64,000 bases of DNA from assembly GCA_963744145.1 (NCBI GenBank), contig CAVUSO010000001.1:5760001-5824000 (forward strand). Direction: 5' to 3'. Source of the stretch: an uncultured cyanobacterium. Lineage in GTDB: Bacteria; Cyanobacteriota; Cyanobacteriia; Cyanobacteriales; CAWUOF01. Below are positions 24,048 through 44,107 of the stretch, one piece after another; positions within the stretch are counted from its first letter, which is position 1, and each line of letters starts with the position of its first letter. The notes beneath the pieces were generated by a model that was given only the letters and a program-made list of their open reading frames with translations, made no database searches and was not told the origin of the DNA. Both the position numbers and the translations under genes were made by a program.

Positions 24048-24562
24048 ATTGAGCTAGTTTCTACTTCTACATATTGCTCATTTTGAAGTTGATAAATTTT
24101 CAATTTGCCAGAATTGTAACTCCAAATTTCTGGTACACCTAAACGGGCATAAATGGGAAAGCGATTTAAAGATTTATTGGTTAAATCGATTTCTAAAGCT
24201 AAATCAGGAGGTGGATCTTGATTCAAGTCAAACTTTAATTGACCTCGTACTCTGGCTTCATTTTGAAAATAAAAGCAGTTATCGGGTTCAATTCCGGCTT
24301 GGCTAATTTCCCGTTTCCAAGTAGCCGATCCGTAATTTTCATAATTGATTGCTAGTTCTTCTGATATGTCTTTAATTGCATCCCCAATGGATTCTTTGTA
24401 ATACTCATGTTCAGGTAATGGGGTCATAATTTCCAAAGTTCCGTTATCGTAAGCAACTCGTGCAGCACGAGTTTGACCTAAGTCAATTAGTAAATTTTCA
24501 AATTGCTGCCAACTAATATCTTGTAAAATCACGCGATCGGCACGGTGTTCGGTCAGTTGCAT
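23936..24562 (-). CDS. Uma2 (DUF820) family endonuclease-like protein
   Basis: ISWQQFE, YDNGTLEIMTP.PEHE, EPDNCFY, PPPDLALEIDLT, YARLGVPEIW. Confidence 0.93.
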   Translation of the reverse strand: MQLTEHRADRVILQDISWQQFENLLIDLGQTRAARVAYDNGTLEIMTPLPEHEYYKESIGDAIKDISEELAINYENYGSATWKREISQAGIEPDNCFYFQNEARVRGQLKFDLNQDPPPDLALEIDLTNKSLNRFPIYARLGVPEIWSYNSGKLKIYQLQNEQYVEVETSSIFPMLRVQEIPSIIDQSRPNGRLAIRQAIRNWVRHRR

Positions 24563-24658: not shown

Positions 24659-25529
24659 AAGCATGACCGAGTTCGTGCAGAAAAGTCACTAGCATGATTA
24701 AAACCGCCAAAGTCAAGACCGTGGTCGAGCCGCCGATGGCCCAAACTGTTTGATTCGATGCGATCGCTTCTTCCGCCGAATCTAGCCATACGGCGATCGA
24801 GGAGGTAATAAATGCACAAAGGATAAATCCAATTGGCCAAGTCCAAATCCAGCGTAATTTGTCGATATGTTTGGTGAGCCAAACATCGGGATTAAAGACT
24901 GGAATTTGATAATAGAATAGTTGCATTAAATTGAATTTTTTCGGAGGTTTTTGTGGATTTATTCCTTCCAGCATCCCCGATGCTGCTAACATTTGGAGGA
25001 GATATTGCAGTTCCTCTAAGGTAATGTCGTATTGATTCGCGATCGCGGGAATTGATATTAGCTGCAATTGGGAAATTATCTCCTTATCAAAATTATCTAT
25101 TTGCAGATTAGTCAGGTTTTCCGGATTGCGAAGTATCCAATAATCCTCGGGGTGATATATCCATTCCAAGCTTGATTTTAATTGAATACCATTATTAGTT
25201 ACCTGGGGTGAAACCGCATCGGATACAGGTTTTTCTCCTTCTATTTCTGGGGGAGTTAGTAAGATTTCCCAATCAGTTAATTGCTGAAGCAATTTGACAA
25301 TAAATTCGGCAGGAATAAACTTATTGAAATGAGAGCGACAACGGTTTAAAACTTGACGAGCCGTATATTTTCCCGTAAAGTGTTTTAAAGCATAGCCTTC
25401 TATCGCTTCAAATTGATAGCGACGATTTCCGATTTTCGCTTGTAAGATTACTTGACCTGAATGATATAGTTAGTCATCTATTTGCCAATGAGCAGATAGA
25501 TCGGGACAAATAAGTTCTAGGTTATCCAT
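24659..25529 (-). pseudogene. Truncated copy 1 of the RRE-like/M50 peptidase
   Basis: Near-identical to 38032-38902; CAA>TAA at 25470-25472; similarity ends right after HELGHA. Confidence 0.88.
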
Positions 25530-25839
25530 TGAAGTAACTGTATTGATGTACTGTCAAAAAAAAAATAACTTGCGGTAATCCTTTACTGAGCCAGAAAATA
25601 GATATTTTAGGATCATCTATTTACTACTTGGAGGGGAAAGGAATACTTAGTCAATCGTTCAAATATTTCCGACAGTTTTTGAGTTCAAAAGGTAGAATGT
25701 TCAAAATCGATCTATCCCCTGAAAATCAAGGGATTGCCACTAGGATCTCAAAACTATCCAAGCTATTAAGTTAAAGCTTTTGGCCAAAACTTATCATCCG
25801 AATACAGAATAACTTAACTATGAGCAGAAAACCAGCAAA

Positions 25840-25937
25840 TTAATATAAAGTTTCTGTAAACCTATTATCAAGATTATGTAAAGTTCCTAAAAATATTCAG
25901 CTAACATCTTGACATTACAAATGAATTTTTCTAGCAT
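25840..25937 (+). promoter_or_regulatory. Promoter of S8 gene copy 1: TTGACA-N17-TAGCAT with upstream 11-bp-period direct repeats
   Basis: -35 at 25909-25914, -10 at 25932-25937; four repeats at 25840-25883; conserved in copy 2. Confidence 0.65.
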
Positions 25938-27895
25938 AGCGGCATCCAGTTATGTGAGGAAACGACAGCTCACTGGATGGCCAAATTTTCTGAAATTAGG
26001 GGTGGATATGGCATTCTCATCTCAGGGTAAACAAGCATCTTCAGGTCAAGGTTTGGGAAAATCAACCAAAAAACGCCACATTCGACGGCGGAGTTTCATT
26101 TTAGAGGAAATTAATACCCCTAGCGCCCTGATTCCCGGTGGGTTATCTGAATGGAATCCCCTCAAGCATATCCTCGAAACATTCTCACACTTAGGTTTAC
26201 ATTTACCAATTAATTTACATTTTTTGGCCTTAGACGGTGGTACTTGTCCCACCACCCCATCAACCAATGACCCAGGAGTCCCGTTACCAGATTTTGACCC
26301 TTTAGGATTAAGACATAATGGAGTTCCCCCTCAGACACCATTTAATCTTGATAGTGCGATCGTAACTCTACCCCCTCCCACTACTATCCTGATCGATCCA
26401 CCAGGAACAGGTTCAGGTAATGTAAATAATCCTGTTACGTTAGATCCGAAACAGTTTGATTTTCCTTTATCTTCTCAGCCATTAGTTGGTGATATAGATA
26501 CAGGATTAAATGCCAATAATCCCTATTTTAACTACAATAATATTAAGGAAGGATATAATTATGTCGATAATACTAATAGTTCCTTAATTCAATCAGGTAA
26601 TCAACATGGTACTTTTACCTTTGGGATTATTGATTCAATTAATCAAACCGCACCAAAATGGGTAGGAGATGCGATCGGTTCTGGTAAATGGGCTGATTCT
26701 TTAGTAGATTTTGTGAATGCGGCTAAAGCATCTGGGCAAAAGAATGCGATCGTCAATCTTAGTTTAGATTTAACTCAGAAAAACCCTGATGGAACGGTAA
26801 CAACACGCTATGAATTGACACCTGAAGAAAGAGCAGCTTTAGAATATGCTCGTCAAAATGGAGTTCTGATCGCAGTAGCCGCAGGAAATGACGGTGGAGT
26901 AATGTCTGTTTTAGGACAAGCTTCCCAGGAATTTGACAATATTATTACAGTTGGTTCTGGAGATACTAACGGTCGCGATTCTTATTCAAGTCACGGTTAC
27001 GGTTTAGATATTTTAGCAGACGGTGGCACAAGTGAAAATCCCGTTTACTCAACCGAGGGAAGTGGCTTAGGAACAATGGCTGGAACTTCTGTAGCAACAG
27101 CTAAGGTAACAGGAGCAGCATCATTAGTTTGGGCAGCAAATCCCAATCTAAGCTATCGTCAAGTTATTGATATTTTGGAGAAAACTGCGAAGGATTTAGG
27201 AACATCAGGATGGGATCAAGATACAGGTTTTGGACTATTAAATGTAGTAGCAGCAGTGCAATTGGCAAAAAATACTACACCAGAAGTACAAGCTACACCT
27301 CCAATTTTTACACCAACAACTTGGGGGGGTGAAGGAAAAGTTACGCCGTTAGAACGAGCTGCTTCAGATATTCCAGAATCTTGGCAGATGAGTAGTTCGG
27401 CGAAAGGAGCAGGACAAATTGCAGTTAGTCGCGATCAAGATGGTCGTCTTGAAGCATTTACAATTGGCTCTGACAATAAGGTTTATCATGCTTGGCAAAC
27501 TTCTCCTAATGGTGATTGGTCTAACTGGAGTGAGATGTCTGGAGAAACTGCTAAGAGTCTAACTGTAGCTCGAAACCAAGATGGTCGTTTAGAAGTGTTT
27601 GCAATCAACACAGATGGTAAGGTTTATCACAACTGGCAAACAACTCCTAATGGTAGTTGGGATAACTGGGACCTTCTAGCTAATAGTGTTGATGCTCAAG
27701 ATTTAACCATAGGTCAAGACGCCGATGGTCACTTAGAAGCTTTTGCGATCGATACAAATAATCAAGTTATTCACACTTGGCAAGGTCCAGGTGGTTGGAG
27801 TGACTGGGGACCGATTGCAGGTGGTAGTGCCAAAAGTATTACCGTAGGTCGCAATCCAGATGGTCGTTTGGAATTATTTACAATTGATACAGATG

Positions 27896-29470
27896 CAATA
27901 CTCCGGACAAAATTAAACTGCAATCGCACCGTAGGAAAGTAGTTCTGAGTAATTGGGATGGCTTTTGATCAAAGTCGGCTCCAAATCTAACTTCAAAATA
28001 AATTGTTCCAAAAGATGCGCGTTGAAGGCTTGGCGTTTATAAGTAGCCATAGAAAAGATAAAGGGCTCATCTTCTTGATGGTTTAATCTGGCTGATAATT
28101 TGGCAATATTCAAAGCTGTCAGACTAGCATTAAAATGAAAATCTAATTTGGCCGCATCACGGGCTTGACAATCCACTAATCCTGTAAACTGTTTAGCATC
28201 ACGAAAAATAAATTCAATCTGAAAACGAGCCTGATAATACTCGTAAATTTCCAGGGCGGTCAGCGACAAATCTGTTGAAAACAAAATTAGATAACCAGTT
28301 TTGTCAGGCTGACGCTGATCAACAACCACGACAATTTTAATGTTTCTCTCTAAGGAGACATGATTAACTATCGCACTATAAATATTAACTGATTTCTCAA
28401 CTTCCTGGCCCCAAGTCAAACGACTTAAATTAGTGAAATTGACTTTTCCTGCATAGAGACGTGGGCGACCACGCTCTTTTTGTTCACCCTGATATAAATA
28501 ACGCATATTGGCATCAATCCGCAATTTACCTAGGTAATGAAAATTGACAGATATCACCCCATCAACAAACTTTTTTTTACTATAGTACCCATCAGCTACT
28601 AGGTGGCGTATATCCGATGGAATATAGCTTTGAGCTCTTTTTAGTTGCTCTAAATACTGATCTACTCTTGTAGCTTCATCCTCTTGATTGTCCGATGTTT
28701 TCGGACTAGATTTTCGGGATTTTTTCTGATTTTTTCCTGGCGATTTTTTGGTGGTTTTTCTTGGTGATTCTGTGGGCAAAGATGGTGATGTTTGCTGAAC
28801 AGATAAAGCATAAGCCGTGTTGATATCTAAATCAATAAGTGCGAGCAGAGAAATTTCTAACCCCCGTTCTGCTTGGCTCTTACTACTATTATAGAAATAA
28901 TCTTTTCCATAGGTTTTTTTACCACTTTTTTGAATAAATGAACAGTCCATTGCTAAAATTTTTCGACTCGTGACCGCTAGGGCTAATTGCAGGAGTTGTT
29001 TATTTAACTCCAAAAAATTGAAGGAGCGCTGAAAATGGCGTCGATAAGTTTTTTCGTTTAACTGCGAGTAACGACTTAAATTAGTAAAATTGACTTTACC
29101 ATAGACTAACAAGATAGTTGTCATTAAGGTTAAGAAAAATTTTTTTTGAGCTTTACTAATCCCAGCAAGTTGAGTTAAGATGTTTTCTAGAAAATTCATA
29201 ATTATCGGTCGGGTCGAATTTACATAGTAAATTCTCTCACGATCGATATTTTTTTGGTGATCTCAGTAAGGAAAAAATTGCGCCCAATCCGTTCGGTTGC
29301 CTGATTTGGCCAGAAAATTGTTCAAGTAGAAAACGATTCAGAATCGAAAATATCTGCCAAATCAGGTTTTCGGCTAGTCCCAGTCTGTCTTTTGGCTATT
29401 GGCCGAAAACTATTGGTTAGTCAATTATACCTATAAATAATTTTCTCTCACCAAAGTGTCCGGAGTATTG
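27896..29470 (-). mobile_element. IS element, 1575 bp (IS4-like DDE transposase)
   Basis: 14-bp perfect TIRs CAATACTCCGGACA / TGTCCGGAGTATTG; 7-bp TSD ACAGATG (27889-27895, 29471-29477). Confidence 0.92.
27913..29199 (-). CDS. DDE transposase
   Basis: [31 protein letters not shown] (YREK-like motif). Confidence 0.92.
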
Positions 29471-30069
29471 ACAGATGGTAAGGTTTATCACAACTGGCAA
29501 ACAAGTCCTAATGGTAGTTGGGATAATTGGGGCCTTCTAGCTAATAGTGTTGATGCTCAAGATTTAACCGTAGGTCAAGATGCTGATGGTCACTTAGAAG
29601 CTTTTGCGATCGATACAAATAATCAAGTTATTCACACTTGGTACGGTCCAGGTGGTTGGAGTAACTGGGGACCGATTGCAGGTGGTAGTGCCAAAAGTAT
29701 TACAGTAGGTCGCAATCCAAATGGTAGTTTGGAGCTATTTACAATTGGTACAGATGGTAATGTTTATCACAACTGGCAAACAACTCCTAATGGTAGTTGG
29801 GATAACTGGGGTCTTCTAGCTAATAGTGTTGATGCTCAAGATTTAACTGTAAGTCAAGATGCTGATGGTCACTTAGAAGCTTTTGCGATCAACACAGATA
29901 ATAAAGTTATCCATACTTGGTACGGTCCAGGTGGTTGGAGTAATTGGGGACCGATTTCATCCAGTTCATTGCCTTCTAATAACTCCAATAGCAATAATTC
30001 CTCTGATATTCATTATGTTAATTTCTCTGGTTCTGTTGGGCCGGATATTGGGGTTAACTTGCGTTATAG

Positions 30070-32313
30070 CCCACATTCCGCACCCTGAACTGTCACAATT
30101 CGTAATTACTGAAATAAACCTCTATCAAAGCTGAAATTTTGGCCCACTATCGTCAAAAAAGAGGTTTTTAAACCTTGATGGTCAGGTCATCAATCTCTAG
30201 TTTATTAATAATTATTAGCAATAAGTAGAAAATGAGGATTTCGGCCCGTTTTTTCAATAAATTTTGGTGTTGACTAGCTCTCTTAACTCAGTTTTGTTAG
30301 TTAATAACTGAACAATCTCTAGTTAAGATAGGTTAATTCTTAGCTCTTAATTAAATTCAAGAACTCATTCAAGCTAAATATATTTATGCTATATTAGCAA
30401 GAGGATTAAGTGATAAATTTATAGTAGCGCCGACAATCTTCTGGTAGCAGGGTCAGGATAAATTCACGTTCATTACTCCAATTAGATACTTGTTGTTGTT
30501 GTTGAAATGTGACCAGGTGAATTGCTTGAAAGCATTGAAATATCCATTTAGCTGTTGGACGGTCTGTTGCTTTCCCTAACTGATTTTTTATGGTTGATTT
30601 TGCTGCTGATAAAGCGGCTCGTATTTGTCTTTGTGCTAGGGTATAAACCAGTAAACCTAGCCCCATAATTGCTGCTAATGATTCGATGCGTTCGGGACTT
30701 TTCAGATAAACACTATCTGCAAAAAATGTGGGATCTTTAAGAAAACCAAATCCTCTTTCACAGGATTGCTGTGCCTTATACTCAGTCAGCATTGCCTCAT
30801 TACTAATTTCGCTTTCTGCTAAAACGTTCGTCGCAATTATGAATCTACCTGCACTGTTAGTTTCTTGTTCAATTTGGCTTTTATCCTCGGTAAAACTGCC
30901 GAGAATTTGATAACACTTTTTTTGACTTTTATCTAATTTATCTGGTCTGATTTCCCTGACTTCTTTTGGTTCAATTTGATGATATTTAAAGGATTTCGAT
31001 AGGTGAGTTAATGCCTTGACTGCATCAGCTTTACAGGCAAATCTATCTTGGGATAATTTTCCTAATTCGCTGTTCAGTTTGGTGGCGGATTTACTAATTT
31101 TCTGTGATAATTTCCGTAAATCTGATTCTCTTCTTTCTTGACTTTCCACAACTAGCCATCTTTGCTTTATCCCACCATAAGTCTGCTCTTTTGCCGCCCA
31201 TGAATATCCAACTAATTTGCTTTTAGTAAATTCTGAATCTGGCAAATTTGCTACTAATTCTTGGGCTAATTTTATCTTTAACGGTACTCGGCTTAACCAC
31301 TTAATTTCCGACATTAATTTGAGATTATCTTCTGTATATAAGGCACAATCAGCTACGATTAAACTATCTACTTTTATTTGATTTTTATAATCAATTGCTA
31401 TCTTCGCAAAGCATGATGAGTCGGCTTGATTTCCTGACGCTGCTTTTAAAAATATTGGGATATCTCCATCCCCGGTACATACTAATTCTATTAAAAATTG
31501 TTTTAAATCAGGTCTATGGTCACGGGAATAACCGTAATTTATTTTGATTGGTTGTCGCGATTTTATTTGGGGCTCTCCTTGGTCTGACAATTCTGGCTGA
31601 CTAAATATTATCTCTGGTAATTCTTGATGATATTCCCCATGTACGTGAATTGACGATGAGTCTAGATGGGATGTATTTAAAGATATATCAAACTTTTTAA
31701 CTGCATTTAAAGTAATTGCTAAAAATATTGTATCCAGTCCTTTACTATATAGTTTATCCATCACTCTTCCCAGTTTATCGTCATTTAAATATTCGGGCTT
31801 TACCCCGGCTCCTATTAAATGTTCACAGGGAATTGATTCAAAAAATTTCGGAAACATATATAATGGTTTAGAAATAAATCCTAACCCATTGATAATCATT
31901 GCTTTAACTGCTTGTCCAGCAGTAACTTTTTCTCCCGATTCTATCCCGATTAAATTATTAATTATTTCTACTATTCCAATCGTATCTACTATTCCTGCTA
32001 CTAACCCCAGATGGTCGATATTCTGAATTTTAATATCGTTTATGTCTACCATAGTTACCCAATTTAACGAGCCAATTTTTGGTTCAATTATCGCATTTTT
32101 AGGCTCGATTGCAATTAATTTTTTTACTCTTTCATTTTCCGGACTTCTGCTACGGTTAATCTCTCAATAACCCAGGGCCTCTTTCTGCTCATAAATCTAG
32201 TTTAATAAAATTTATTCTCATTAATCTCATTTATGATCTTTTTGAGCCAACTTTCTTCGTCCCCAATTTTTACCCTTTTATTAAGATGTGCCAGTGAGGG
32301 TGCGGAATGTGGG
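30070..32313 (-). mobile_element. IS1634-family element, 2244 bp
   Basis: 17-bp TIRs CCCACATTCCGCACCCT / AGGGTGCGGAATGTGGG; 6-bp TSD TTATAG (30064-30069, 32314-32319). Confidence 0.93.
30406..32052 (-). CDS. IS1634-family transposase
   Basis: IDHLGLVAG, LNDDKLGRVMD, HLDSSS, GYSRDHRPDLKQ, YKAQQSCERGFGFLK. Confidence 0.92.
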   Translation of the reverse strand: MVDINDIKIQNIDHLGLVAGIVDTIGIVEIINNLIGIESGEKVTAGQAVKAMIINGLGFISKPLYMFPKFFESIPCEHLIGAGVKPEYLNDDKLGRVMDKLYSKGLDTIFLAITLNAVKKFDISLNTSHLDSSSIHVHGEYHQELPEIIFSQPELSDQGEPQIKSRQPIKINYGYSRDHRPDLKQFLIELVCTGDGDIPIFLKAASGNQADSSCFAKIAIDYKNQIKVDSLIVADCALYTEDNLKLMSEIKWLSRVPLKIKLAQELVANLPDSEFTKSKLVGYSWAAKEQTYGGIKQRWLVVESQERRESDLRKLSQKISKSATKLNSELGKLSQDRFACKADAVKALTHLSKSFKYHQIEPKEVREIRPDKLDKSQKKCYQILGSFTEDKSQIEQETNSAGRFIIATNVLAESEISNEAMLTEYKAQQSCERGFGFLKDPTFFADSVYLKSPERIESLAAIMGLGLLVYTLAQRQIRAALSAAKSTIKNQLGKATDRPTAKWIFQCFQAIHLVTFQQQQQVSNWSNEREFILTLLPEDCRRYYKFIT

Positions 32314-34138
32314 TTATAGTCCGAACAAGGATAATCGCAGCCCTTATAATGATCCCTATAATGAGACGTTGAATTTTGATGCTTGGACTTATGGCGATAC
32401 ACTCCCCGATTTCTGGCAAGGAACGCCCGATGCTCGCTGGTTCCGCGTAACTGGCCCAGATGGGAATAAATATTGGGTTCCTAGTGCTTATATTAATGGG
32501 AATCCACCTGATTCTAGTCCTCTTCCAGGTGGTGGTTCTAGCAATAATAATAATTCGGGGAGTAGTAATAGCGGGTATAACAGGCAAGATGCTGTTGCTT
32601 ACGCTCATGAATATGCTAACAGCCGCAATCCTCAATATTACGACTATTCAAACGAAGGTGGAAACTGCGCTAACTTTGTTTCTCAATGTTTAGTTAATGG
32701 TGGACTTTTACCAGACAAGGCAGATAGCAACGGTAAAAATCCTTACGAATATATCAATGCTGATGGATTAACCAACTATTTGCTTAATAACGGTTTTGCG
32801 ACAGAAGTTAGCTCTATTGATCAGTTAGAACCTGGGGATGTAATTGCCTATTCTTGGGATGGCGGTCCAGTCATGGATCACGTTGCTGTATATACTGGTA
32901 ACGGCACTGTGGCTGGTAATACTACCGATGAAGATGGTTGGGATTGGAAACTAGGAGTAGGAAATTACTATCCTAATGGTACAATCAAACTGCTGCACAT
33001 AACTGGTGGAAATAGCGCGTCATTCGTTCCACCTGATTCTGTTACTATTAATGGCTATGATATCAGTGGTCCGTTTTACTCAGTCTTCAAACAGTATCAA
33101 AATTTACTTGGTAATCCTACTTCTTCAGTGATTGTTCAAGGAGATGGCACTAGCATACAATATTTCGATAATGGATACATTTTCTGGGATGGTCAGCAAG
33201 CTGTAGCTTACTACAGTGGAAATGGAATACCAGTTACACCACCTCCGGATAATCTACCTGATCCTTTCGATGGAAACTATGACAGAAATGCTGCGGTTGC
33301 TTATGCTCGAAAATATGCTGATTACCCTAATCCAGAATATCAGGATCAATACAATAATGGTGGTGATTGTACAAATTTCGTCTCTCAAGCTTTAATTGCA
33401 GGTGGAGCTTTATTTCTACCTGTAGTTCAAAACAATTTAATGACATTTTTGCATTTTGGTAAAACTACTTTAAAAAATGATTTTATCAATGCAGATAAAC
33501 TGCCACTATATCTTGAATCTCACGGAATGGCTATTATTAAGAGAGGCTTAAAAGGGCTATCAGTTGAAGAGAAGCTTAGGGAAATTGAACAATTCATGAT
33601 ACCAGGAGATATTTTTGGTTATGACGAACATCCTGGTCAATATATAGATCACCTCAATTTTTATCTTGATTATGGAGCAGACGGTGTACCTAGAGTTGCT
33701 AATCATAGTGGTAATACAGATGAAGGTTATGAGGGCGATTCGATTAAAGATGTTAATTTGGATTCTCTTGAAATGCTAATCCATATCATTCGTCCAGATA
33801 ATAGACTTTAGAATCTATTTTAAAGTTAAAGGAAAGCCTATCTATCGTGGATAAATCTGGTTCTTTAGACTGTAAACTAGCACCTGACTAGAGAAAGCGA
33901 TCACTTTTTCACCATCGAAAGTGCGATCGCTAGTAGGTCTCCCAAGAAGAATCACCTTTACCTATTTATAGAAAAGCGATCGCCTCTATTTCCAATCTCT
34001 ATGTTTACTCTCAGAAGCGATCGCAATTATTAATTCATAAGCGAGGGTTGGAAATAGGAAGCGATCGCCATTGGTAAAATCCGATGAAAAGCAGTTGCTC
34101 AAGTCAAATATTTAATTCATCTTTTGTTGGATAAAATG

Positions 34139-34298
34139 CAATACGGTGCAGTTAACTGTAGGGGCGAAGCATTCGGGCGATTATTTAGCACTTAAATCTG
34201 TTAATATTATATCCGAATGCTGATGCCTACGGCACGCTACGCGAACGCCCGGTCTGCGCCGATATCCCCCAAAAAAAGATGGTAACTGAACCATATTG
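34139..34298. mobile_element. Nezha-like MITE with REP doublet and SDR insertion
   Basis: TIRs CAATACGGTGCAGTTA / TAACTGAACCATATTG; 10-bp TSD GGATAAAATG; an empty paralogous site is present at 47334-47343. Confidence 0.88.
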
Positions 34299-34354
34299 GG
34301 ATAAAATGGTGATAGCGAAGAATGCGATTAGCTTAAACAATTCGGAAGGAAGAA

Positions 34355-34425
34355 GGGCGAAGCATTCCGGGAATAAATTGCTGGTGAGCACCAATAACTG
34401 ATCTGCCGGAATGCTTCGCCCCTAC
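34355..34425. repeat. REP-like doublet GGGCGAAGCATTCCGG...CCGGAATGCTTCGCCCCTAC; further copies near 35134, 45553, 47390, 49627
   Basis: Long inverted repeat with CTAC/GTAG foot and a conserved loop. Confidence 0.8.
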
Positions 34426-34580
34426 AAGAAACTCACATTAGATCGCTTTTTTGAGAGGTCGATGGCGATCGCTAGTAAATCTCCCAAACAGAATCACCTT
34501 TCCCTATTGATAGAAAAGCGATCGCCCCCATCCCCAACTTCTAACCTTACAATGGTGGTATAGTATTGGAACTTAAAATC

Positions 34581-35015
34581 ATGTCTACAGAACAGATGGG
34601 CAAAATTACCACCACATTGACTATTACAAACCGAGCCGATCAATCTGCTGCAACACGCGGTTATATTCCCCCAGAACAAGTCCGCTCGATTACCCTAAAA
34701 AACGTGCTAGTAGATACAGGAGCTACTACCCTTTGTTTACCCCCAGAAGCGATCGCCCAGCTAGGTTTAGAACTGCTGCGAGAAGTTGATGTTACCACTG
34801 CGACCGGACTCAGTAAAGCTCGCATTTTTCGAGATGCTAGTATTTTACTAATGGGACGAGAAGGCACCTTTGAATGTCTAGAATTACCTGGTGGACGAGA
34901 TGCTCTTTTGGGAGTGATTCCTCTGGAAGCTTTGGGAATTGAGTTAGACTTACGAAATCAGCAATTAAAAGTTTTACCCGAAACCTCGATCGATACCTAT
35001 TTAACCATCTTGTAA
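34581..35015 (+). CDS. Clan AA (retropepsin-like) aspartyl protease
   Basis: VLVDTGATTL and ALLGVIPLEALG. Confidence 0.85.
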   Translation: MSTEQMGKITTTLTITNRADQSAATRGYIPPEQVRSITLKNVLVDTGATTLCLPPEAIAQLGLELLREVDVTTATGLSKARIFRDASILLMGREGTFECLELPGGRDALLGVIPLEALGIELDLRNQQLKVLPETSIDTYLTIL

Positions 35016-35606
35016 AAATAATCTTCTTTCCAAATCCCAGAGAGCGATCGCAATTATTAACTCATCAATAGGGTTGGAAATAGGAAGCGATCGCTATTGG
35101 TAAAATCCGCTCAAAAACAGTTGAGAAGAAGAAGGGCGAAGCATTCCGGGAATAAATTGCTGGTGAGCACCAATAACTGATCTGCCGGAATGCTGATGCC
35201 TACGGCACGCTGCGCGAACGCGTAGCGTGCCGTAGGCAAACGCCCCTACTACAATAAACTGACATTATATCGCTTGTTTGAGAGGTCGATGGCGATCGCG
35301 TCATATCTCCAAAGCAGAATCACCTTTCCCTATTTAGAGAAAAGCGATCGCCTAGATCCAATCTCTAGCTTTACAATGGTGATCTAGTATTGGAACTCAA
35401 AATAATGTCTACAGAACAAATGGGCAAAATCACCACTACATTGGTAACATCCTAACTGCCGCAGATGTCCTGAATTTACTCGTCAGGGGAATGGGGCGAT
35501 CGCGTTTTTTGAGGATGGGGCGTGTAATCGCAACAGAAATAAGCTAAACTTTATCCAGGAGGAAACTTTATATTACAAAGCCACGACACTTGCGTAGTTC
35601 GTAATT

Positions 35607-35993
35607 TTGTTAAGAGATAGGATAGGCATTGTGATTCAGGGAGAAGGTTTTACAGTCAAAGAAAGCAAATTGGACTACTTTTTTGGTCGTGCTACATCTA
35701 CCCCGCGCAATGCGAAGCGGTCCTCAAATAATTTAGAAAACCTAAAAAAACTGGGAATTGATGAGACTGTTGATGGCATAGCAAGACTCATTCAAATATT
35801 TCAAGAAGGCTTAAATGCTCCTGAGATTATAGCGTACAGGAAAGACAACGAATACGGAACTAGTATAGCCAGGAAAGTTGAAGTAAGTGGGCCGGATGTA
35901 GTCGGTGCGATCATTGTTAGCTACTACTACCCTGGTGGTAATCGCTCTGTAATCCCTCAAGTTTCCTCAATTATTACCCTCATCTATAAATAG
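35607..35993 (+). CDS. Stand-alone polymorphic-toxin-like C-terminal domain
   Basis: KLDYFFGR...N..RS..NL..L..LGI...SYYYPGGN....P.V.SII resembles CdiA/MafB-type toxin tips as recalled, not searched. Confidence 0.55.
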   Translation: MLRDRIGIVIQGEGFTVKESKLDYFFGRATSTPRNAKRSSNNLENLKKLGIDETVDGIARLIQIFQEGLNAPEIIAYRKDNEYGTSIARKVEVSGPDVVGAIIVSYYYPGGNRSVIPQVSSIITLIYK

Positions 35994-36001
35994 GAAAATT
36001 T

Positions 36002-36496
36002 ATGAAACTTCAACCCATTAATGAATCAGAATTCAACCGAATTGAAAGCCCCCGCCAGATAATTGCCCATGACTATTCTCACTATTTTTCGCTGCTCAAT
36101 CTTGGCGAAAATCTAGGCTATTACGGTCTTAGTTGGAGAAGTCAGCTAGTTGAGCCAATTGTTCAAATTAGTTCTGACAAAAATACAGTTTGGATTGGAG
36201 TAGATCAACAGTTGGCAGCTATTTGTCTCCAAACAGGTCGTATTATTGTAGCCATGCCCCTAACTTGTTATATTGTGGAAATCCTCATCTTGGAGGAGGT
36301 AACGATAGCAATAACAGAAAATGAGGTCCTGGTTTTTAATCCTGGTGGAGCAATCCGCTATAATTGCGGTCTGCCTGACATTCCAGAAGAAATCTCAATT
36401 GTCGGCACGAATTTGCTAATTAAAACCATCGCTGGTGATAATTTAACCATTAATTCGATTGTTGGTAATCTCAAAGAAAAGGTACTATCTGTTTAG
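36002..36496 (+). CDS. Putative immunity protein
   Basis: Starts 8 nt after the toxin-like ORF; 164 aa; no enzyme motif. Confidence 0.55.
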   Translation: MKLQPINESEFNRIESPRQIIAHDYSHYFSLLNLGENLGYYGLSWRSQLVEPIVQISSDKNTVWIGVDQQLAAICLQTGRIIVAMPLTCYIVEILILEEVTIAITENEVLVFNPGGAIRYNCGLPDIPEEISIVGTNLLIKTIAGDNLTINSIVGNLKEKVLSV

Positions 36497-36802
36497 AGAA
36501 AAGGGTGTAATCTTTGCATGAACCAAAATCATGTCTACAGAACAAATGGGCAAAATCACCACCACATTGACTATGACAAACCGAGCTGATCAATCTGCTG
36601 AGCTGATATAAGCCGTGCTATATCTCCAAAGAAAAATCACCTTTCCCTATTTATAGAAAAGCGATCGCCCATCGACCATCTCTAGCTTTACAATGGTGAT
36701 AGCCAAGAAATGTAATCAGCTCAAAAATTAGGAAGAATGGCGATCGCTATGGAGAAAACTAAAAAGTCCAAATCTTGATTCTAATTAGCTGGCGATCGCC
36801 AT

Positions 36803-36835
36803 AAAAAAGCCCCAGATTTTTCTAGGGCTGTTTTT
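36803..36835 (-). terminator. Intrinsic terminator downstream of the PEP-CTERM gene
   Basis: AAAAAAGCCC...GGGCTGTTTTT hairpin with A/T tails. Confidence 0.6.
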
Positions 36836-36876
36836 GTAATTTGTATGACTCAAAACCGATAAAGATATCCTATGGT

Positions 36877-37398
36877 TTAATGAGAACCAGCGATTTTCTT
36901 TTGTTTCCAGTAATAGCCAAAGCTTGCAGCTAAAATTCCACCTATAATAGTGGTTGGTTCTGGTACTGATTCATCCCCAGTAGATTTATTACCGTCAGGA
37001 TTGTTGGCACTAGTATTACTACCTGTGCAACCATTTGAACTACTTGCAATGGGAGCATTAAAGGCAATTTTAACTCCATTAGAATTAGACCCAGTAAAAG
37101 GTTGGGAGTTACCATTATTACTATTAGTTTCTGGAGCATTGAGCAAGTTGAGAGTAGCAACTGGGTTATCCGTGTTAGATAAATTAACTGCAACTTGGGA
37201 ATTATTTGCAGGTGGGACAACACTCCCAGTCAATAGAGGATTATCCGTATTCTGATTGCTCCCATTACCATTACTGTAGGAACTTAGAATTGTGTCAGTG
37301 AGAGGAGTAGCAAGAGTAGGTAAGGATTGTTCGTTAAAAATCACACAACCAACTATTCCGCTGATCAGTATTAGTCCTTTTTTTTGATTAAATTTCAT
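36877..37398 (-). CDS. PEP-CTERM sorting domain protein
   Basis: Signal peptide, Asn/Ser-rich body, C-terminal VPEPTTIIGGILAASFGYYWKQKK. Confidence 0.9.
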   Translation of the reverse strand: MKFNQKKGLILISGIVGCVIFNEQSLPTLATPLTDTILSSYSNGNGSNQNTDNPLLTGSVVPPANNSQVAVNLSNTDNPVATLNLLNAPETNSNNGNSQPFTGSNSNGVKIAFNAPIASSSNGCTGSNTSANNPDGNKSTGDESVPEPTTIIGGILAASFGYYWKQKKIAGSH

Positions 37399-37483
37399 GA
37401 CAATTAGCTCCTAATATTTTTTCCAAAAGGTGAGATTGACTTTCTGATTAAGCATGGTTTTACCCTTGATGATTGAGCGCATT

Positions 37484-38902
37484 TTAAAAATGTGGGATCG
37501 GTAACTTAGTCAAGTCAAATCCTCCTGGTAAATGTTGCATAATCCAAACGGCTAGTAAAGATAGTAGATACCCAAAAATCCAGATGGTATAGGCTATACT
37601 CAAAGGAGCATAAGCCGCCAAAATCCAGCGATCGCTTGGTGCTTCTATGATTTCTTGTCTTTGCCACAATTGGGCATAAAATTGGAACGAGCGATCGCGT
37701 AGATTATTAATTCCTGACCAAGCTACTAACAGATAATATCCGTCAAATTTATTCAGCGGATTAAGGTTAAGCATTACTGTTACTAAAGCGGCTGTCATCA
37801 GCAAATAACTTGTATTATGGATGAGTGGATTAGCACTAGAAAACAGCCAAATCCACACAGCGATCGACCAAATAATTATTTGGACTAAAACTCCTGCTGC
37901 TACTACTAAAATGCGTTCTTTTCGCCTGATTAAACTGTATTGATCGGTAGTGTTAGTATAGCATCCTGGCATCAAGCACATGAATAACAATCCTATCTCA
38001 CGCACCATCCCCCCATAGTGTTTTAAGGTAAAAGCATGACCCAGTTCGTGCAGAAAAGTCACTAGCATGATTAAAACCGCCAAAGTCAAGACCGTGGTCG
38101 AGCCGCCGATGGCCCAAACTGTTTGACTCGATGCGATCGCTTCCTCAGCCGAATCTAGCCATACGGCGATCGAGGAGGTAATAAATGCACAAAGGATAAA
38201 TCCAATTGGTCAAGTCCAAATCCAACGTAATTTGTCGATATGTTTGGTGAGCCAAGCATCAGGATTAAAGACTGGAATTTGATAATAGAAGAGTTGCATT
38301 AAATTGAATTTTTTCGGAGGTTTTTGTGGATTTATTCCTTCCAGCATCCCCGCTCCTGCTAACATTTGGAGGAGATATTGCAGTTCCTCTAAGGTAATGT
38401 CATATTGATTCGCGATCGCGGGAATTGATATTAGCTGCAATTGGGAAATTATCTCCTTATCAAAATTATCTATTTGCAGATTAGTCAGGTTTTCCGGATT
38501 GCGAAGTATCCAATAATCCTCGGGGTGATATATCCATTCCAAGCTTGATTTTAATTGAATACCATTATTAGTTACCTGGGGTGAAACCGCATCGGATACA
38601 GGTTTTTCTCCTTCTATTTCTGGGGTAGTTAGTAAGATTTCCCAATCAGTTAATTGCTGAAGCAATTTGACAATAAATTCGGCAGGAATAAACTTATTGA
38701 AATGAGAGCGACAACGGTTTAAAACTTGACGAGCCGTATATTTTCCCGTAAAGTGCTTTAAAGCATAGCCTTCTATCGCTTCAAATTGATAGCGACGATT
38801 TCCGATTTTCGCTTGTAAGATTACTTGACCTGAATGGTATAGTTGGTCATCTATTTGCCAATGAGCAGATAGATCGGGACAAATAAGTTCTAGGTTATCC
38901 AT
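37484..38902 (-). pseudogene. M50 (site-2) metallopeptidase with two N-terminal PqqD/RRE-like domains; in-frame TGA at 38210-38212
   Basis: HELGH and NLNPLNKFDG motifs; copy 1 has TGG (Trp) where this copy has TGA; both ORF halves are in the same frame. Confidence 0.85.
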
Positions 38903-39212
38903 TGAAGTAACTGTATTGGTGTACTGTCCAAAAAAAAATAACTTGCGGTAATCCTTTACTGAGTGAGAAAATAGATATTTTAGGATCATCTATTCACTAC
39001 TTGGAGGGGAAAGGAATACTTAGTCAATCGTTCAAATATTTCCGATAGTTTTTGAGTTCAAAAGGTAGAATGTTCAAAATCAATCTATCCCCTGAAAATC
39101 AAGGGATTGCCACTAGGATCTCAAAACTATCCAAACTATTAAGTTAAAGCTTTTGGCCAAAACTTATCATCCGAATACAGAATAACCTAACTATGAGCAG
39201 AAAACCAGCAAA

Positions 39213-39310
39213 TTAATATAAAGTTTCTGTAAACCTATTATAAAGATTATGTAAAGTTCCTAAAAATATTCAGCTAACATCTTGACATTACAAATGAATT
39301 TTTCTAACAT
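39213..39310 (+). promoter_or_regulatory. Promoter of S8 gene copy 2: TTGACA-N17-TAACAT with 11-bp-period repeats
   Basis: Paralogous to 25840-25937. Confidence 0.65.
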
Positions 39311-39380
39311 AGCGGCATCCAGTTGTGTGAGCAAATTACAGCCCACTGGATGGCCAAATTTTCTTAAATTAGGGGTAGAT

Positions 39381-42300
39381 ATGGCATTCTCATCTCAGGG
39401 TAAACAAGCATCTTCAGGTCAAGGTTTGGGAAAATCAACCAAAAAACGCCACATTCGACGGCGGAGTTTCATTTTAGAGGAAATTAATACCCCTAGCGCC
39501 CTGATTCCCGGTGGGTTATCTGAATGGAATCCCCTCAAGCATATCCTCGAAACATTCTCACACTTAGGTTTACATTTACCAATTAATTTACATTTTTTGG
39601 CCTTAGACGGTGGTACTTGTCCCACCACCCCATCAACCAATGACCCAGGAGTCCCGTTACCAGATTTTGACCCTTTAGGATTAAGACATAATGGAGTTCC
39701 CCCTCAGACACCATTTAATCTTGATAGTGCGATCGCCACTCTACCTCCTCCCACTACCTTACCGATCGATCCACCAGGAACAGGGTCAGGTAATGTAAAT
39801 AATCCTGTTACATTAGATCCGAAACAGTTTGATTTTCCTTTATCTTCTCAGCCATTAGTTGGTGATATTGATACAGGATTAAATGCCAATAATCCCTATT
39901 TTAACTACAATAATATTAAGGAAGGATATAATTATGTCGATAATACTAATAATTCCTTAATTCAATCAGGTAATCAACACGGTACTTTTACCTTTGGGAT
40001 TATTGATTCAATTAATCAAACCGCACCAAAATGGGTAGGAGATGCGATCGGTTCTGGTAAATGGGCTGAGTCTTTAATAGATTTTGTGAATGCGGCTAAA
40101 GCATCTGGGCAGAAGAATGCGATCGCTAATCTTAGTTTAGATTTAACTCAGAAAAACTCTGATGGAACGGTAACAACACGCTATGAATTCACACCTGAAG
40201 AAAGAGCAGCTTTAGAATATGCTCGTGAAAACAATGTCTTAATTGTCACAGCCGCAGGAAATGATGGCAGTGTAATGTCTGCATTAGGTCAATCTTCCCA
40301 AGAATTTGACAATGTGATTACAGTTGGTTCTGGAAATAGTAATGGTAGGTATGATTATTCTAGCTACGGTAATGGTTTAGATATCCTAGCTGATGGTGGC
40401 ACCACAGCAAACCCCCTTGAATCTACCGTAGGAGATGGGTTAGGAACAATGGCTGGAACTTCAGGAGCGACTGCCAAAGTAACAGGAGCAGCATCATTAG
40501 TATGGGCAGCAAATCCTGAGTTAAGTTACAGTCAAGTGATTGATATTTTGGAGAAAACGGCGAATAATTTAGGAACGCCCGGATGGAATCAAGATACAGG
40601 TTTTGGACTATTAAATGTAGTAGCAGCAGTACAATTAGCAAAGAATACCACGCCAGAGGTACAGGCTACACCTCCGATTTTAACCCCGACAACTTGGGGT
40701 GGTGAAGGGCAAGTTACACCGTTAGAACGGGCTGATTCAGATCAAGGTAGTATTCCAGAATCTTGGCAGATGAGTAGTTCGGCAAAAGGAGTCGGACAAA
40801 TTGCAGTTAGTCGCGATCAAGATGGTTGTCTTGAAGCATTTACAATTGGTGCAGATAATCAAGTTTATCGTGCTTGTCAAACTTCTCCTAATGGTGGTTG
40901 GTCTAACTGGAGTGAGCTGCCTGGAGAAACTGCGAAGAGTCTAACTGTAGCTCAAAACCAAGATGGTCGTTTAGAAGTGTTTGCGATCAACACAGATAAT
41001 CAGGTTGACCATATTTGGCAAACAACTCCTAATGGTACTTGGAGTAATTGGAATACCTTAGCTAATGGAGCTGATGTTCAAGATTTAACTGTGGGACAAG
41101 ATGCCTCTGGTAATTTAGAAGTTTTTGCAATCGATACAAATAATCAAGTTATTCATACTTGGCAAGGTGGTTCCCAAGGTGGTTGGAGTGACTGGGGACC
41201 GATGTCAGGCGTTGCGGCTAAAAGTATTACGGTGGGTCGCAATTCAGATGGTCGTTTAGAACTATTTACAATTGGTACAGATGGTAATGTTTATCACAAC
41301 TGGCAAACAACTCCTAATGGTACTTGGAGTAACTGGAATACCTTAGCTAATGGAGCTGATGTTCAAGATTTAACTGTGGGACAAGATGCCTCTGGTAATT
41401 TAGAAGTTTTTGCAATCGATACAAATAATCAAGTTATTCATACTTGGCAAGGTGGTTCCCAAGGTGGTTGGAGTATCTGGGGACCGATGTCAGGTGTTGC
41501 GGCTAAAAGTATTACCGTAGGTCGCAATCCAGATGGTCGTTTGGAACTATTTACAATTGGTACAGATGGTAATGTTTATCACAACTGGCAAACAACTCCT
41601 AATGGTAGTTGGGATAACTGGGGCATTCTGGCTAATAGTGTTGATGCTCAAGACTTAACTGTAAGTCAAGATGCTGATGGTCACTTAGAAGCTTTTGCGA
41701 TCAACACAGATAATCAAGTTATCCATAGTTGGTACAGTTCCCAAGGTGGTTGGAGTAATTGGGGACCGATTTCATCCAATTCAGTATCCAATTCAGCAGT
41801 TATTAGCGACTATACTATCAGTCAAAGTTTTTTCAACGTTTATCAACAAAATCAAAACTCTCTTGGTAATCCAATTGGTGATGTTCAATCTTTATCTAAT
41901 GGGATCAGCTATCAGAATTTTGAAAATGGGTCGATTATAAATAGTCCGAATGGAACTTTTCCTCTGTATGGACCGATTAGTCAACAATATTTGAACGATG
42001 GGGCACTTAATGGAAACTCACTGCAAAATTTGGGTGTTCCTACTAGTCCTATATATACAGATCAGAATGGATTTCAAACACAGTATTTTGAAAATGGTTC
42101 AATCGTTTGGGATGGTCAGCAAGCTGTAACTTATGATAGCGCAAATGGAGTTCCTGTTGCAAGTATTAATGATATACCAAGTTCAGAACCACAGCAAAAT
42201 ATAATTTATGGTATTAACAATGTCTCTAGTGAAAGTTCTAACTTAATTGGTGATGTTGGTAATTTAACTAGTGACACTCCTAACTTGATTGGTGATGTTG

Positions 42301-44052
42301 GCACAATCCTACAATTACCATATAACAACAATATCCTACAATTACCAGGGATAGTAAAAGTTTCTTCTGGCTCTATTGATGATTTGTTGAAAGGAGCCCA
42401 GCGATTACCACTAAAGAGTGGAGTTGATCCAGTAATACAATACGAAAAGAATGGTGGATGGTCATTAATTTGGGAAGATTATCAAAACTTGACAGAAGGG
42501 TTAAACCCTATACAAAAAGAAACTAGGGATGGTCTTCTTTGGGTGACTAAGCTTCCTGATGGAAGTAAAGCTATCGGTCGAAACTTTAGTTCTGGAAACT
42601 TGCTTACTATTGAAATTCAGAATCCAGATAGTAACACAATTAGAGATCAGATATATTGACCCTATGAGTCCAAGTTCTAAATTTCTTCCTAAAGACTTCC
42701 CTATTGGTGAAGACCCTAGTGTTAGCAGTGATGTCAACAGTCCAACTTCAACTGACATTAATAGTCCTGACTCCAAGATAGTTAGTCCAAGTGATAGTGG
42801 TAATTTTGATTCTGGAACAAGTAATTCAGGAGATAGCAATACGGCTTCAGATACTTCTAGCTCAAGTGATTCTAGTGCCAATGACTCTAGTGTTAGCAGT
42901 GATGTCAACAGTCCAACTTCAACTGACATTAATAGTCCTGACTCCGGGATAGTTAGTCCAAGTGATAGTGGTAATTTTGGTTCTGGAACAAGTAATTCAG
43001 GGGATAGCAATACTACTTCAGATACTTCTAGCTCAAGTGATTCTAGTGCCAATGACTCTAGTGTTAGCCGTGATGTCAACAGTCCAACTTCAACTGACAT
43101 TAATAGTCCTGACTCCGGGATAGTTAGTCCAAATGATAGTGGTAATTTTGGTTCTGGAACAAGTAATTCAGTGGATAGCAATACTGCTTCAGATACTAAT
43201 TTTCCCAGTGAAGGCGATTCTGCTAGTATTTCTTCAGATACTAATTCTTTGGGTGCTTCAACTTTGGGTGATGTTGCCAATACAGCTATGTCAGCAATTT
43301 TCATCGCTGATTCTTCCTTCAATCTTGCAAACGCATATCAACAAGATGGTGGACAATTTGGACAAAACTTTGATACAACAGCAGGCAGTGTAGCTGGTCA
43401 GGTTATCGGTGGGGATATTGGTGCAGAAGTAGGAGAGGCAATTGGTTTTACCATTGGGTCTTTTTTTGGTGGAGTAGGAGCAATTCCAGGGGCAGCTATT
43501 GGTAGTTTTGTTGGTGGTTTAATTGGTTCTAATGTTGGTTCTAATGTTGGTTCTAGCCTAGGTAGTGCCTATTATGGCGCAACTACTGGTGATAGTGGTA
43601 GTTATTCTTCTAATAATTATTCCGGTAGTAACTATAGTAGTAGCTATTCTAGTGGCGCAACTACTGGTGATAATGGTAGTTATTCTTCTAATAATTATTC
43701 TAGCAATAACTACAGCAGTAGCTATTCTAGTGGCGCAACTACTGGTGATAGTGGTAGTTATTCTTCTAATAATTATTCTAGCAATAACTACAGCAGTAGC
43801 TATTCTAGTGGCGCAATTACTGGTGATAATGGTAGTTATTCTTCTAATAATTATTCTAGCAATAACTACAGCAGTAGCTATTCTAGTGGCGCAACTACTG
43901 GTGATAGTGGTAGTTATTCTTCTAATAATTATTCTAGCAATAACTACAGCAGTAGCTATTCTAGTGGCGCAACTACTGGTGATAGTGGTAGTTATTCCTC
44001 TAATAATTATTCTAGCAATAACTACAGCAGTAGCTATTCTAGTGGTTATTAA
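39381..44052 (+). CDS. Leader-S8 peptidase-7-blade propeller-LGFP-like-putative RNase toxin-Ser/Asp repeats-glycine zipper-SSNNY repeats (~1556 aa if the +1 frameshift near 42645 is corrected)
   Basis: ORF 39381-42659 overlaps ORF 42559-44052 in the +1 frame; joining them gives [11 protein letters not shown](I/L)EIRY; S8 motifs DIDTG, HGT, AAGND, GTSGA. Confidence 0.8.
42716..43197 (+). repeat. 171-bp (57-aa) coding tandem repeat, ~2.8 copies
   Basis: GTTAGC(A/C)GTGATGTCAAC recurs at 42721, 42892, 43063. Confidence 0.93.
43576..44043 (+). repeat. 78-bp (26-aa [26 protein letters not shown]) coding tandem repeat, 6 copies
   Basis: Units start at 43576, 43654, 43732, 43810, 43888, 43966. Confidence 0.95.
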
Positions 44053-44066
44053 CTATGACATAAATA

Positions 44067-44107
44067 AAAGCCAATTATATACTAAATAGTCTAATATAGT
44101 TGGCTTT
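44067..44107 (+). terminator. Hairpin after S8 gene copy 2
   Basis: AAAGCCAATTATAT...ATATAGTTGGCTTT. Confidence 0.55.

Follow-up and report, generated by a model that had tools for sequence, protein, structure and literature searches.

A candidate polymorphic effector family of filamentous cyanobacteria with a RiPP-like leader and a putative RRE-M50 partner protease

Two paralogous loci and their decay

The DNA considered here is a stretch of 64,000 nucleotides from an uncultured cyanobacterium (contig CAVUSO010000001.1), referred to below as the window. It bears the marks of a cyanobacterial chromosome, namely repeats rich in GCGATCGC and a G+C content of about 38-40%, and it contains two paralogous loci, copy 1 and copy 2, in each of which a gene for a large protein with an N-terminal subtilase domain (Peptidase_S8, henceforth S8) lies divergently from a gene for an intramembrane metalloprotease of the M50 family. 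A first-pass annotation made from the sequence had described these loci as duplicates 13,373 bp apart, alike from the M50 gene through a leader, the S8 domain and seven propeller blades, and parting abruptly after the motif WGPISS; a blastn comparison and a count of the blades bear out all of these points. The observation was real but read too smoothly: its interpretation proves correct at the core and wrong in several details, and the M50 gene, which had been overlooked, is to our mind the most interesting part of the locus.

The duplication consists of a left block, 24659-27895 against 38032-41283 (92.99% identity over 3254 columns), whose left ends are offset by the said 13,373 bp (repeat family D7), and a right block, 29471-29968 against 41277-41783 (88.2% over 509 columns). 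The shared segment begins inside the M50 gene and runs across the intergenic region, the leader and the S8 domain to the end of the seven blades. Beyond about 29968 and 41783, directly behind the last blade, blastn finds the copies alike only in an 82-nt stretch coding for LGFP repeats (33157-33238 against 42080-42161, 77%) and in some downstream repeats. Since identity along the shared segment is a mosaic, at 95.5-100% for 24659-26858 (from the M50 gene to the early subtilase gene) and at 74.5-89% thereafter, recombination rather than simple decay is likely to have shaped it. The M50-side block is 98% identical between the copies (1236/1262) and includes the divergent intergenic region at 38990-39281 (no strand; 25617-25908 in copy 1), where the promoter evidence consists of consensus-like matches only. 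The promoter and terminator scans were uninformative, with 26 promoter-like sites against 18.4 +/- 4.0 in shuffled sequences and three terminator-like sites against 3.5. Adjoining the left boundary of the duplication, on the minus strand at 23936-24562, is a gene for a Uma2-family putative endonuclease that matches the PADLOC candidate defence family PDC-S17 (E 6.5e-43).

The copy 2 effector gene (39282-42659, plus strand) is an intact frame of 1125 amino acids (aa) counted from the first TTG, with the likely start at M34 (39381). Its S8 domain (39849-40607, residues 190-442) is recognized by Pfam (E 1.9e-26) and by the subtilisins of the PDB (E about 1e-16); the catalytic D197, H233, N327 and S394 are present, as had been claimed, in columns that show no variation in 18 of 18 aligned proteins. 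Behind it lies a seven-bladed beta-propeller lectin of the PLL/PHL type (40770-41801, plus strand), likewise in agreement with the first reading: its closest PDB matches are PLL2 (6rfz, E 3.5e-65, over residues 35-370 of 371) and PHL (5mxe, E 2e-63), and among NCBIfam models it matches beta_propeller_lectin with E 4.7e-34 and CV39L lectin with E 4e-31, scores that stay under the family cut-offs. The module is thus homologous over its full length to the Photorhabdus lectins PLL, PLL2, PLL3 and PHL (5c9l, 6rfz, 6t96 and 5mxe; E 3.5e-65 to 9.5e-59), but it is embedded within an enzyme of 1125 aa, whereas each of those lectins, at about 370 aa, makes up a protein by itself. It is followed by two stretches of LGFP repeats (41862-42170, plus strand; Pfam E 1.9e-12) and by a C-terminal domain of about 120 aa with no assigned family (42294-42656, plus strand), the presumed tip, which we studied by a relatives search, an AlphaFold2 (AF2) model and Foldseek.

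The last 120 residues have only seven relatives among 1.84 billion representatives, and in all six of those inspected, proteins of 104-1200 aa of which one is another S8 effector, the match falls at the C-terminus. Such recurrence at the ends of unrelated proteins points to toxin-cassette-like behavior. The AF2 model of the tip is of moderate confidence (predicted local distance difference test score, pLDDT, 76.7), and in the Atlas the tip falls into unnamed clusters, plus a MafB lead (0.88) that covers 11% of the members. The first-pass suggestion of an RNase-toxin-like domain is unsupported: there is no Pfam match, and the best Foldseek match in the PDB has E 0.034, with unrelated folds and none at E <= 0.001. 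The glycine zipper that had also been assigned to copy 2 belongs to a separate open reading frame (ORF), discussed below.

What had been taken for a single gene in copy 1 is a pseudogene in three pieces, cut by two insertion sequences (IS) that had escaped notice. Piece A (25909-27895, plus strand) encodes the leader, the S8 domain (E 1e-25) and blades 1-4, and is broken within blade 4 by IS#1 (27896-29470, minus strand; 1575 bp), which carries a DDE transposase ORF at 27913-29199 with DDE_5 and DDE_Tnp_1 matches, 14-nt perfect inverted repeats and a 7-bp target duplication, ACAGATG, at 27889-27895 and 29471-29477. Piece B (29478-30069, plus strand; 88% identical to 41277-41783) resumes with the remainder of blade 4, adds blades 5-7 and, past WGPISS, enters the tail. 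It is interrupted in turn by IS#2 (30070-32313, minus strand; 2244 bp), with a DUF4277 transposase-like ORF at 30406-32052 (E 3.8e-42), 17-nt perfect inverted repeats and a 6-bp target duplication, TTATAG, at 30064-30069 and 32314-32319. Piece C (32320-33811, plus strand) holds the rest of the tail, an SH3-like stretch, an Amidase_6 domain, an LGFP-like stretch and a second Amidase_6 domain. Removal of both elements in silico, each with one copy of its target duplication, yields a frame of 1356 codons with no internal stop and with seven blades, as in copy 2. Of the domains earlier proposed for this tail, the two Amidase_6 stretches stand (E 1.4e-47, with weaker CHAP and NlpC/P60 matches in Pfam) and the SH3-like domain could not be confirmed; piece C has no match among PDB sequences, while its residues 1-69 are found again in other family members. 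We predict that the tip of copy 1 was a double Amidase_6 (NlpC/P60-like) cell-wall amidase.

The M50 genes have also suffered. That of copy 2 (37484-38989, minus strand; Pfam Peptidase_M50, with HELGH and NPLNKFDG motifs behind two predicted RiPP-recognition elements, RREs, RiPP denoting peptides that are made on the ribosome and modified after translation) is otherwise complete, but its frame is interrupted at 38210-38212, between the RRE part and the protease part, by a TGA that reads TGG in copy 1. Split RRE and protease proteins are known in other RiPP systems; here the second part would lack the first membrane helix, which makes its function doubtful. In copy 1 the duplication boundary cuts the gene off behind HELGHA, and the remnant (24659-25616, minus strand) contains two in-frame stops; its end at 25616 equals the copy 2 start codon minus the 13,373-bp offset. 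The system is thus decaying in this genome, with the copy 1 effector broken by IS elements and its M50 gene a stump, and with a premature stop in the copy 2 M50 gene; at face value, only the copy 2 effector gene is intact.

A constant head with exchanged tips

A search with residues 1-480 of copy 2, in which 7999 candidates were scored, returned 501 proteins at E <= 1e-3. Among the 120 matches listed, the named ones come from filamentous cyanobacteria, and many cover 89-99% of the 480 residues at 56-64% identity with widely different precomputed domains. In species-representative genomes, a scan gave 238 pattern matches; confirmation left 211 places, and the 80 retained among these are loci of cyanobacteria or of metagenome-assembled genomes with uninformative titles. 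From their S8 ORFs we scanned with Pfam 28 that have a short N-terminal region and are mostly complete, excluding the truncated L009, L012, L022 and L030. The S8 domain lies near the N-terminus in 28 of 28, at about residues 165-490, with varied domains behind it: M23 in seven proteins, CHAP in six, SLT and Peptidase_C39_2 in three each, Pesticin, GH19, Phage_lysozyme and Lipase_3 in two each, and Muramidase, Amidase_6, Cytotoxic (colicin E3-type) and Colicin_E5 in one each, with four proteins that have only binding modules or nothing in this position. The C-terminal domains of the homologs are therefore not invariant, and hydrolase, colicin-type and lipase domains sit on one chassis.

The rate at which tips change is apparent from a pairwise comparison of 21 proteins (copy 2 and 20 Microcoleus-type loci). 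Among the 140 of 210 pairs whose N-terminal identity is at least 85%, the alignable share of the C-terminal part is below 30% in 91, 30-80% in 41 and at least 80% in only eight. Taken with the domain survey, this upholds the earlier claim of a constant N-terminus with swapped C-terminal effectors, and the sequences display what appears to be the constant-head, swapped-tip pattern of polymorphic toxins. The chassis is shorter than had been thought: the constant part, leader plus subtilase, ends near residue 480, behind the subtilase, and the propeller occurs in two of the 80 loci, with 57-68% identity in L060 and about 32% in L048. The propeller, once counted as part of the chassis, is thus better seen as a probable swappable module, and other binding modules of the relatives are SH3b, LysM, PPC and DUF4394.

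As to immunity, a plus-strand ORF of at least 45 aa begins within 200 nt downstream of 53 of 75 S8 genes. Two cases are suggestive of immunity genes: in L011, a DUF6980 ORF (E 2.1e-26) lies 27 nt downstream of the colicin E3-like tip, and in L014 an ORF of 111 aa follows the Colicin_E5 tip after 5 nt. In the window itself, a separate ORF of 462 aa (42664-44052, plus strand) starts 4 nt after the copy 2 stop codon and encodes three Ser/Asp/Asn-rich 57-aa repeats, a hydrophobic glycine-zipper segment at about residues 245-300 (Gly-zipper_Omp, E 2.1e-5, just below the cut-off) and six 26-aa repeats. At the DNA level these are three 171-nt units at 42701-43213 and six 78-nt units from about 43497. 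The ORF has no relative in the 80 loci by tblastn and could be an immunity or accessory protein.

The orphan toxin/immunity pairs that the first-pass annotation placed downstream were not borne out. The genes in question, orf128 (35607-35993, 128 aa) and orf164 (36002-36496, 164 aa), have no Pfam, NCBIfam or PADLOC match. A weak Atlas lead for orf128 (DUF6883, 0.88) is all that speaks to its identity, and no longer relatives of it were found, in itself weak evidence; nor does blastn detect a displaced copy of either effector tail elsewhere in the window. Reading the pair as an orphan cassette was accordingly rejected. In L075 and L079, homologous pairs lie 0.65-3 kb downstream of S8 genes that lack a leader, and we treat orf128/orf164 as a probable independent two-gene module.

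Several features of individual loci may be recorded here. In L012 (2852-8731) the S8 frame stops at 495 aa and is followed by a 370-aa minus-strand ORF and then by a 1021-aa frame with PPC and LGFP domains, an interruption that resembles the IS disruption of copy 1. L077 is a leaderless relative on a 366-kb Calothrix plasmid, and part of the wider S8 family is thus plasmid-borne. Pentapeptide-repeat proteins of about 660-680 aa are encoded within about 240 nt behind the effector gene in L010, L020 and L029, and in L008 this place is taken by a 695-aa ORF with no Pfam match.

The leader, the M50 gene and their neighbors

The N-terminus of the chassis bears a predicted leader peptide, which from the family alignment, the motif logo and its register with the daptide leader would span M34-P71 in copy 2 (39381-39494, plus strand). 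It is about 40 residues long and basic, hydropathy reveals no hydrophobic Sec-like signal sequence in it, and it ends in the family motif F-I-L-E-x-I-x-T-P|S, in copy 2 F63-I-L-E-E-I-N-T-P71|S72 (39468-39497), where L65, P71 and S72 are nearly invariant across the family alignment. The logo, built from 37 unique of 50 segments, reads F(-9) I(-8) L(-7) E(-6) K/P/E(-5) I(-4) V/L/I(-3) T(-2) P(-1) S(+1), with E or D at -6. A hidden Markov model (HMM) of the leader, run against 22,392 six-frame fragments from the 80 loci and the window, gave 59 matches, all within S8 ORFs and none in other fragments; nine of the 59, mostly weak internal ones, are without the T/S-P-S core.

The daptides are described as having a leader motif ELExMEAP, in which the residues L(-7), D(-6), P(-5), M(-4) and P(-1) are numbered, and as losing their leader to the RRE-dependent peptidase MpaP (10.1101/2023.03.08.531785). 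In the same register the present family shares L(-7), an acidic residue at -6, P(-5) in many members, I or M at -4 and P(-1). By analogy with the daptides, the cut in copy 2 is predicted to lie between P71 and S72. A double-glycine leader of the kind used by peptidase-containing ATP-binding cassette transporters (PCATs), to which a G-G in the window had drawn attention, was considered and rejected: positions +5/+6 are G or D and not invariant, and no C39 domain or ATP-binding cassette (ABC) transporter occurs in the window or is conserved among the loci. PCAT substrates have an N-terminal, non-Sec double-glycine leader that a dedicated membrane protease removes, and in this respect, a non-Sec leader paired with a membrane protease, as well as in the HlyD adaptors of some loci, the present systems are reminiscent of them.

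The distribution of the leader is associated with that of the M50 gene. By tblastn the latter adjoins the S8 gene in 41-42 of the 80 loci, lying divergently upstream in 24, upstream on the same strand in six and downstream in 11, and it is present in 33 of the 47 loci that have at least 2.5 kb of upstream and 3 kb of downstream flank. Under a strict criterion, 31 of these 47 have both leader and M50, 11 have neither, three the leader only and two the M50 gene only (Fisher p = 1.4e-6, uncorrected for relatedness). The M50 gene appears to be the only neighbor conserved across the family and, on this genomic association, its probable functional partner.

The M50 protein itself has as its best NCBIfam match the daptide_HExxH intramembrane metalloprotease (E 4.8e-36 for the C-terminal part of the window protein and E 4.7e-44 for L003) and as its second best the YydH/LiaK epipeptide protease (E 4.7e-13), each with a score under the curated cut-off. 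When the N-terminal 259 residues of the window protein are modeled with AF2 (28-row alignment, pLDDT 80.2), they fold into two beta3-alpha3 domains in succession. The best meaningful Foldseek match in the PDB is the cyanobactin oxidase ThcOx (E 3.2e-4), further matches being TbiB1 with its leader (TM-score 0.65) and a lasso B1 protein with its leader (TM-score 0.71), besides LynD, TruD, TigE and PqqD. The modeled fold thus argues that these domains are tandem RREs.

The architecture recalls daptide MpaP/DapP, in which an RRE is fused N-terminally to an M50 (site-2) intramembrane protease with an HExxH motif (10.1101/2023.03.08.531785). The differences are that the window protein has two RREs, that daptide substrates are short peptides whereas those proposed here are proteins of 850 to over 3000 aa, and that daptide hosts are Actinomycetota or Bacillota whereas the present ones are cyanobacteria; further, no daptide-type aminotransferase, decarboxylase or methyltransferase gene is found in the window or among the conserved neighbors. 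EpeP/YydH is likewise a membrane M50 protease, thought, according to a review, both to cut the leader of its peptide and to export the product (PMC10885120), but its substrate is a small peptide modified by a radical-SAM epimerase, and no such epimerase is present here.

In 13 loci a gene for an HlyD-type adaptor is added as a third member, in the order S8-M50-HlyD or M50-HlyD-S8. HlyD families were matched by four of the five neighbor proteins examined (HlyD_D23 in L072, E 7.6e-18); the proteins are membrane-anchored at the N-terminus and contain a long coiled coil.

The remaining genes around the window loci are of less certain relevance. Downstream of the copy 2 M50 gene, a PEP-CTERM protein (36877-37398, minus strand; NCBIfam cyano_PEP) occupies the place that PEP-CTERM proteins of 225 aa take in 18 Microcoleus-type loci (tblastn, neighbor cluster 2). 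Directly behind the glycine-zipper ORF, 44209-45300 encodes a TIGR03032/DUF4915 family protein (E 2.8e-130) for which the 80 loci contain no relative; the tandem arrays of the glycine-zipper ORF create long spurious frames at 42501-43322 (minus strand) and 43565-44089 (plus strand). A GCGATCGC-rich repeat unit, which codes for an aspartyl protease of the retropepsin-like kind (about 149 aa; Pfam gag-asp_proteas/Asp_protease_2), occurs at 34566-35015 and 51188-51622, with fragments near 35358-35443, 36484-36600 and 45754-45915; related ORFs (70-83% identity) lie just downstream of the S8 effector genes of L001, L023, L045 and L055. Farther out on the minus strand are genes for a PIN-domain protein (45957-46367) and a CHAT-domain protein (62694-63998), and CHAT, TPR and DUF1822 genes recur near the S8 loci of Coleofasciculus-type contigs (clusters 11, 18 and 19).

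A proposed effector system and its alternatives

We propose that the region represents two paralogs of a modular secreted effector family of filamentous cyanobacteria, a polymorphic family whose leader is recognized and cut by the RRE-M50 protease, and we give this reading a probability of roughly 0.6. It builds on the established co-occurrence of leader and M50 gene, the constant-N/variable-C pattern, the domain content and the RRE fold. Each effector would consist of the leader, a proline-rich linker of about 110 residues, a complete subtilase and an exchangeable C-terminal part that combines binding modules (in the window, the lectin propeller and LGFP repeats) with one or more killing enzymes. 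The RRE domains would bind the leader motif, and the M50 domain would cut behind T-P, in the manner of the homologous peptidase of daptide maturation. Cutting might be coupled to export, for which the HlyD-type adaptor, the third gene in some of the related loci, is a candidate participant. The subtilase would then activate or release the tip, while the propeller would hold the enzyme on the glycans of a target cell and the tip would attack its peptidoglycan or another target. On these sequence comparisons the family behaves like a polymorphic toxin family, is probably a relative rather than a member of the daptide-type systems, and seems to have, among its many targeting modules, one with a known lectin fold.

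Several observations weigh against this proposal. Both M50 copies of the window are defective, and hence the window's own system may not work. The daptide NCBIfam scores, 124.7 bits for the C-terminal part of the window protein and 151 bits for L003, lie far under the curated cut-off of 300, and for this reason we regard the M50 protein as related to, and not part of, the daptide peptidase family. Fourteen of the 47 well-flanked loci are without an M50 gene, the pairing has exceptions in both directions (three leaders without M50, two M50 genes without a detected leader), and the association test leaves relatedness uncorrected. No HlyD gene stands beside M50 in the window or in the Microcoleus-type loci; no transporter ATPase is conserved nearby, nor is anything else beyond the S8-M50-HlyD trio. 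Downstream ORFs give no general signal of co-variation with the tips, in that only three pairs of similar tips have a similar downstream ORF and 48 do not. No activity could be assigned to the copy 2 tip, given the failure of the Pfam and fold searches. Finally, we know of no RRE-M50 substrate that comes close in size to one of more than 1000 aa.

Some of these points would suit secreted exoenzymes that, like class III bacteriocins or lysostaphin, are bacteriolytic, lyse unrelated neighbors for nutrients or space and need no self/non-self immunity system, with M50 still serving as the leader peptidase. Most tips are indeed peptidoglycan hydrolases joined to the wall-binding SH3_3, LysM or LGFP modules, the lectin propeller fits the binding of foreign surface glycans, and a general signal of cognate immunity genes is absent. 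Colicin E3-like, Colicin_E5 and pesticin-like tips on the very same chassis are at odds with such a role, as is the toxin-plus-immunity layout of the DUF6980 ORF behind the E3-like tip, and tip turnover among near-identical N-termini is the signature of intraspecific arms races; we thus consider this alternative rather unlikely, if deserving of attention. A role in the cell's own life, as wall-remodeling or programmed-lysis enzymes (in necridium formation or hormogonium release) that the leader keeps inactive until regulated intramembrane proteolysis activates them, strikes us as distinctly improbable. The pairing of a subtilase with a site-2 protease does recall the eukaryotic site-1/site-2 protease (S1P/S2P) cascade, the family is limited to filamentous cyanobacteria in the 80 loci kept, and immunity genes are not evident. 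Yet housekeeping autolysins are not expected to swap tips at 85-95% identical N-termini or to carry colicin-type nuclease or lipase domains, RREs on the M50 protein are typical of leader recognition and not of anti-sigma processing, the HlyD adaptors point to export, and the gene decays here without an obvious replacement.

There is also the sober possibility that a segment with the gene of an ordinary secreted protease was recently duplicated and then decayed under the action of IS elements, the tails being functionally meaningless and no cassettes having been exchanged. The two IS elements in copy 1, the damage to both M50 genes and the wealth of repeats and mobile elements in the region would all be accommodated by it. 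It does not account for a break exactly at a domain boundary with coherent domain arrays in both tails, for the open 1356-codon frame that IS removal restores, for the mosaic identity that indicates recombination or for the same constant/variable pattern in many other genomes. The varied tips of the 28 proteins and the comparison of 140 pairs largely refute it, and we accord it very little credence.

Among known systems, the closest in logic are the polymorphic toxins cataloged by Zhang, de Souza, Anantharaman, Iyer and Aravind in 2012 (PMC3482391), where, in large multidomain proteins, a conserved N-terminal trafficking part is joined to hypervariable C-terminal toxins exchanged between close relatives, colicin E3/E5-type and peptidoglycan-hydrolase tips occur as they do here, and Table 1 has subtilisin as one of the processing proteases and counts beta-propellers with the repeats. 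The RRE-M50/RiPP-leader route and this cyanobacterial family are not among the systems described in the portion of that work available to us, and the adjacent immunity genes and orphan cassettes typical there are not demonstrated here. The hallmarks of CDI, Rhs and MafB systems (two-partner secretion domain plus filamentous hemagglutinin repeats, RHS repeats and the MafB N-domain, respectively) have no Pfam match in either copy or in the 28 relatives. Bacteriolysins and bacteriocins of the colicin type (lysostaphin, zoocin A, pesticin, and colicins E3 and E5 among them) also combine a killing enzyme with a targeting domain. The catalytic families M23, CHAP, Pesticin, Cytotoxic and Colicin_E5 are common to them and the present effectors, but the latter are without a Sec signal or a colicin translocation/receptor domain and have an N-terminal subtilase and a RiPP-like leader instead. 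Full-text searches of the literature turned up no account of the family, subscription-only papers and supplementary files lying outside this scope.

We tentatively take the proposal a step further, at somewhat short of even odds: in filamentous cyanobacteria, proteins of more than 1000 aa might be trafficked by a RiPP-type leader, along a route taken over from the biosynthesis of peptide natural products, with the tandem RRE-M50 protein reading and removing the leader and passing the effector out, alone or with HlyD, and with no dedicated ABC ATPase in the locus. If true, this would be a new mode of secretion and processing for polymorphic toxins and the first RRE system to act on a large folded enzyme, and it would offer a testable answer to how giant effectors without a Sec signal leave cyanobacterial cells. 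It would likewise bring together the so far separate study of leader recognition in RiPPs and of polymorphic protein toxins, and extend the leader/RRE logic beyond short peptides. Lytic enzymes (M23, CHAP, muramidases, amidases and lipases) and envelope-binding modules would be on offer in the family as a natural, modular library, and the conserved leader-M50 pair could be used directly for genome mining. For the organisms themselves, it would suggest enzyme-based competition by mat- and crust-forming Microcoleus, Tychonema, Coleofasciculus and Nostoc, and would thus be relevant to the ecology of benthic mats.

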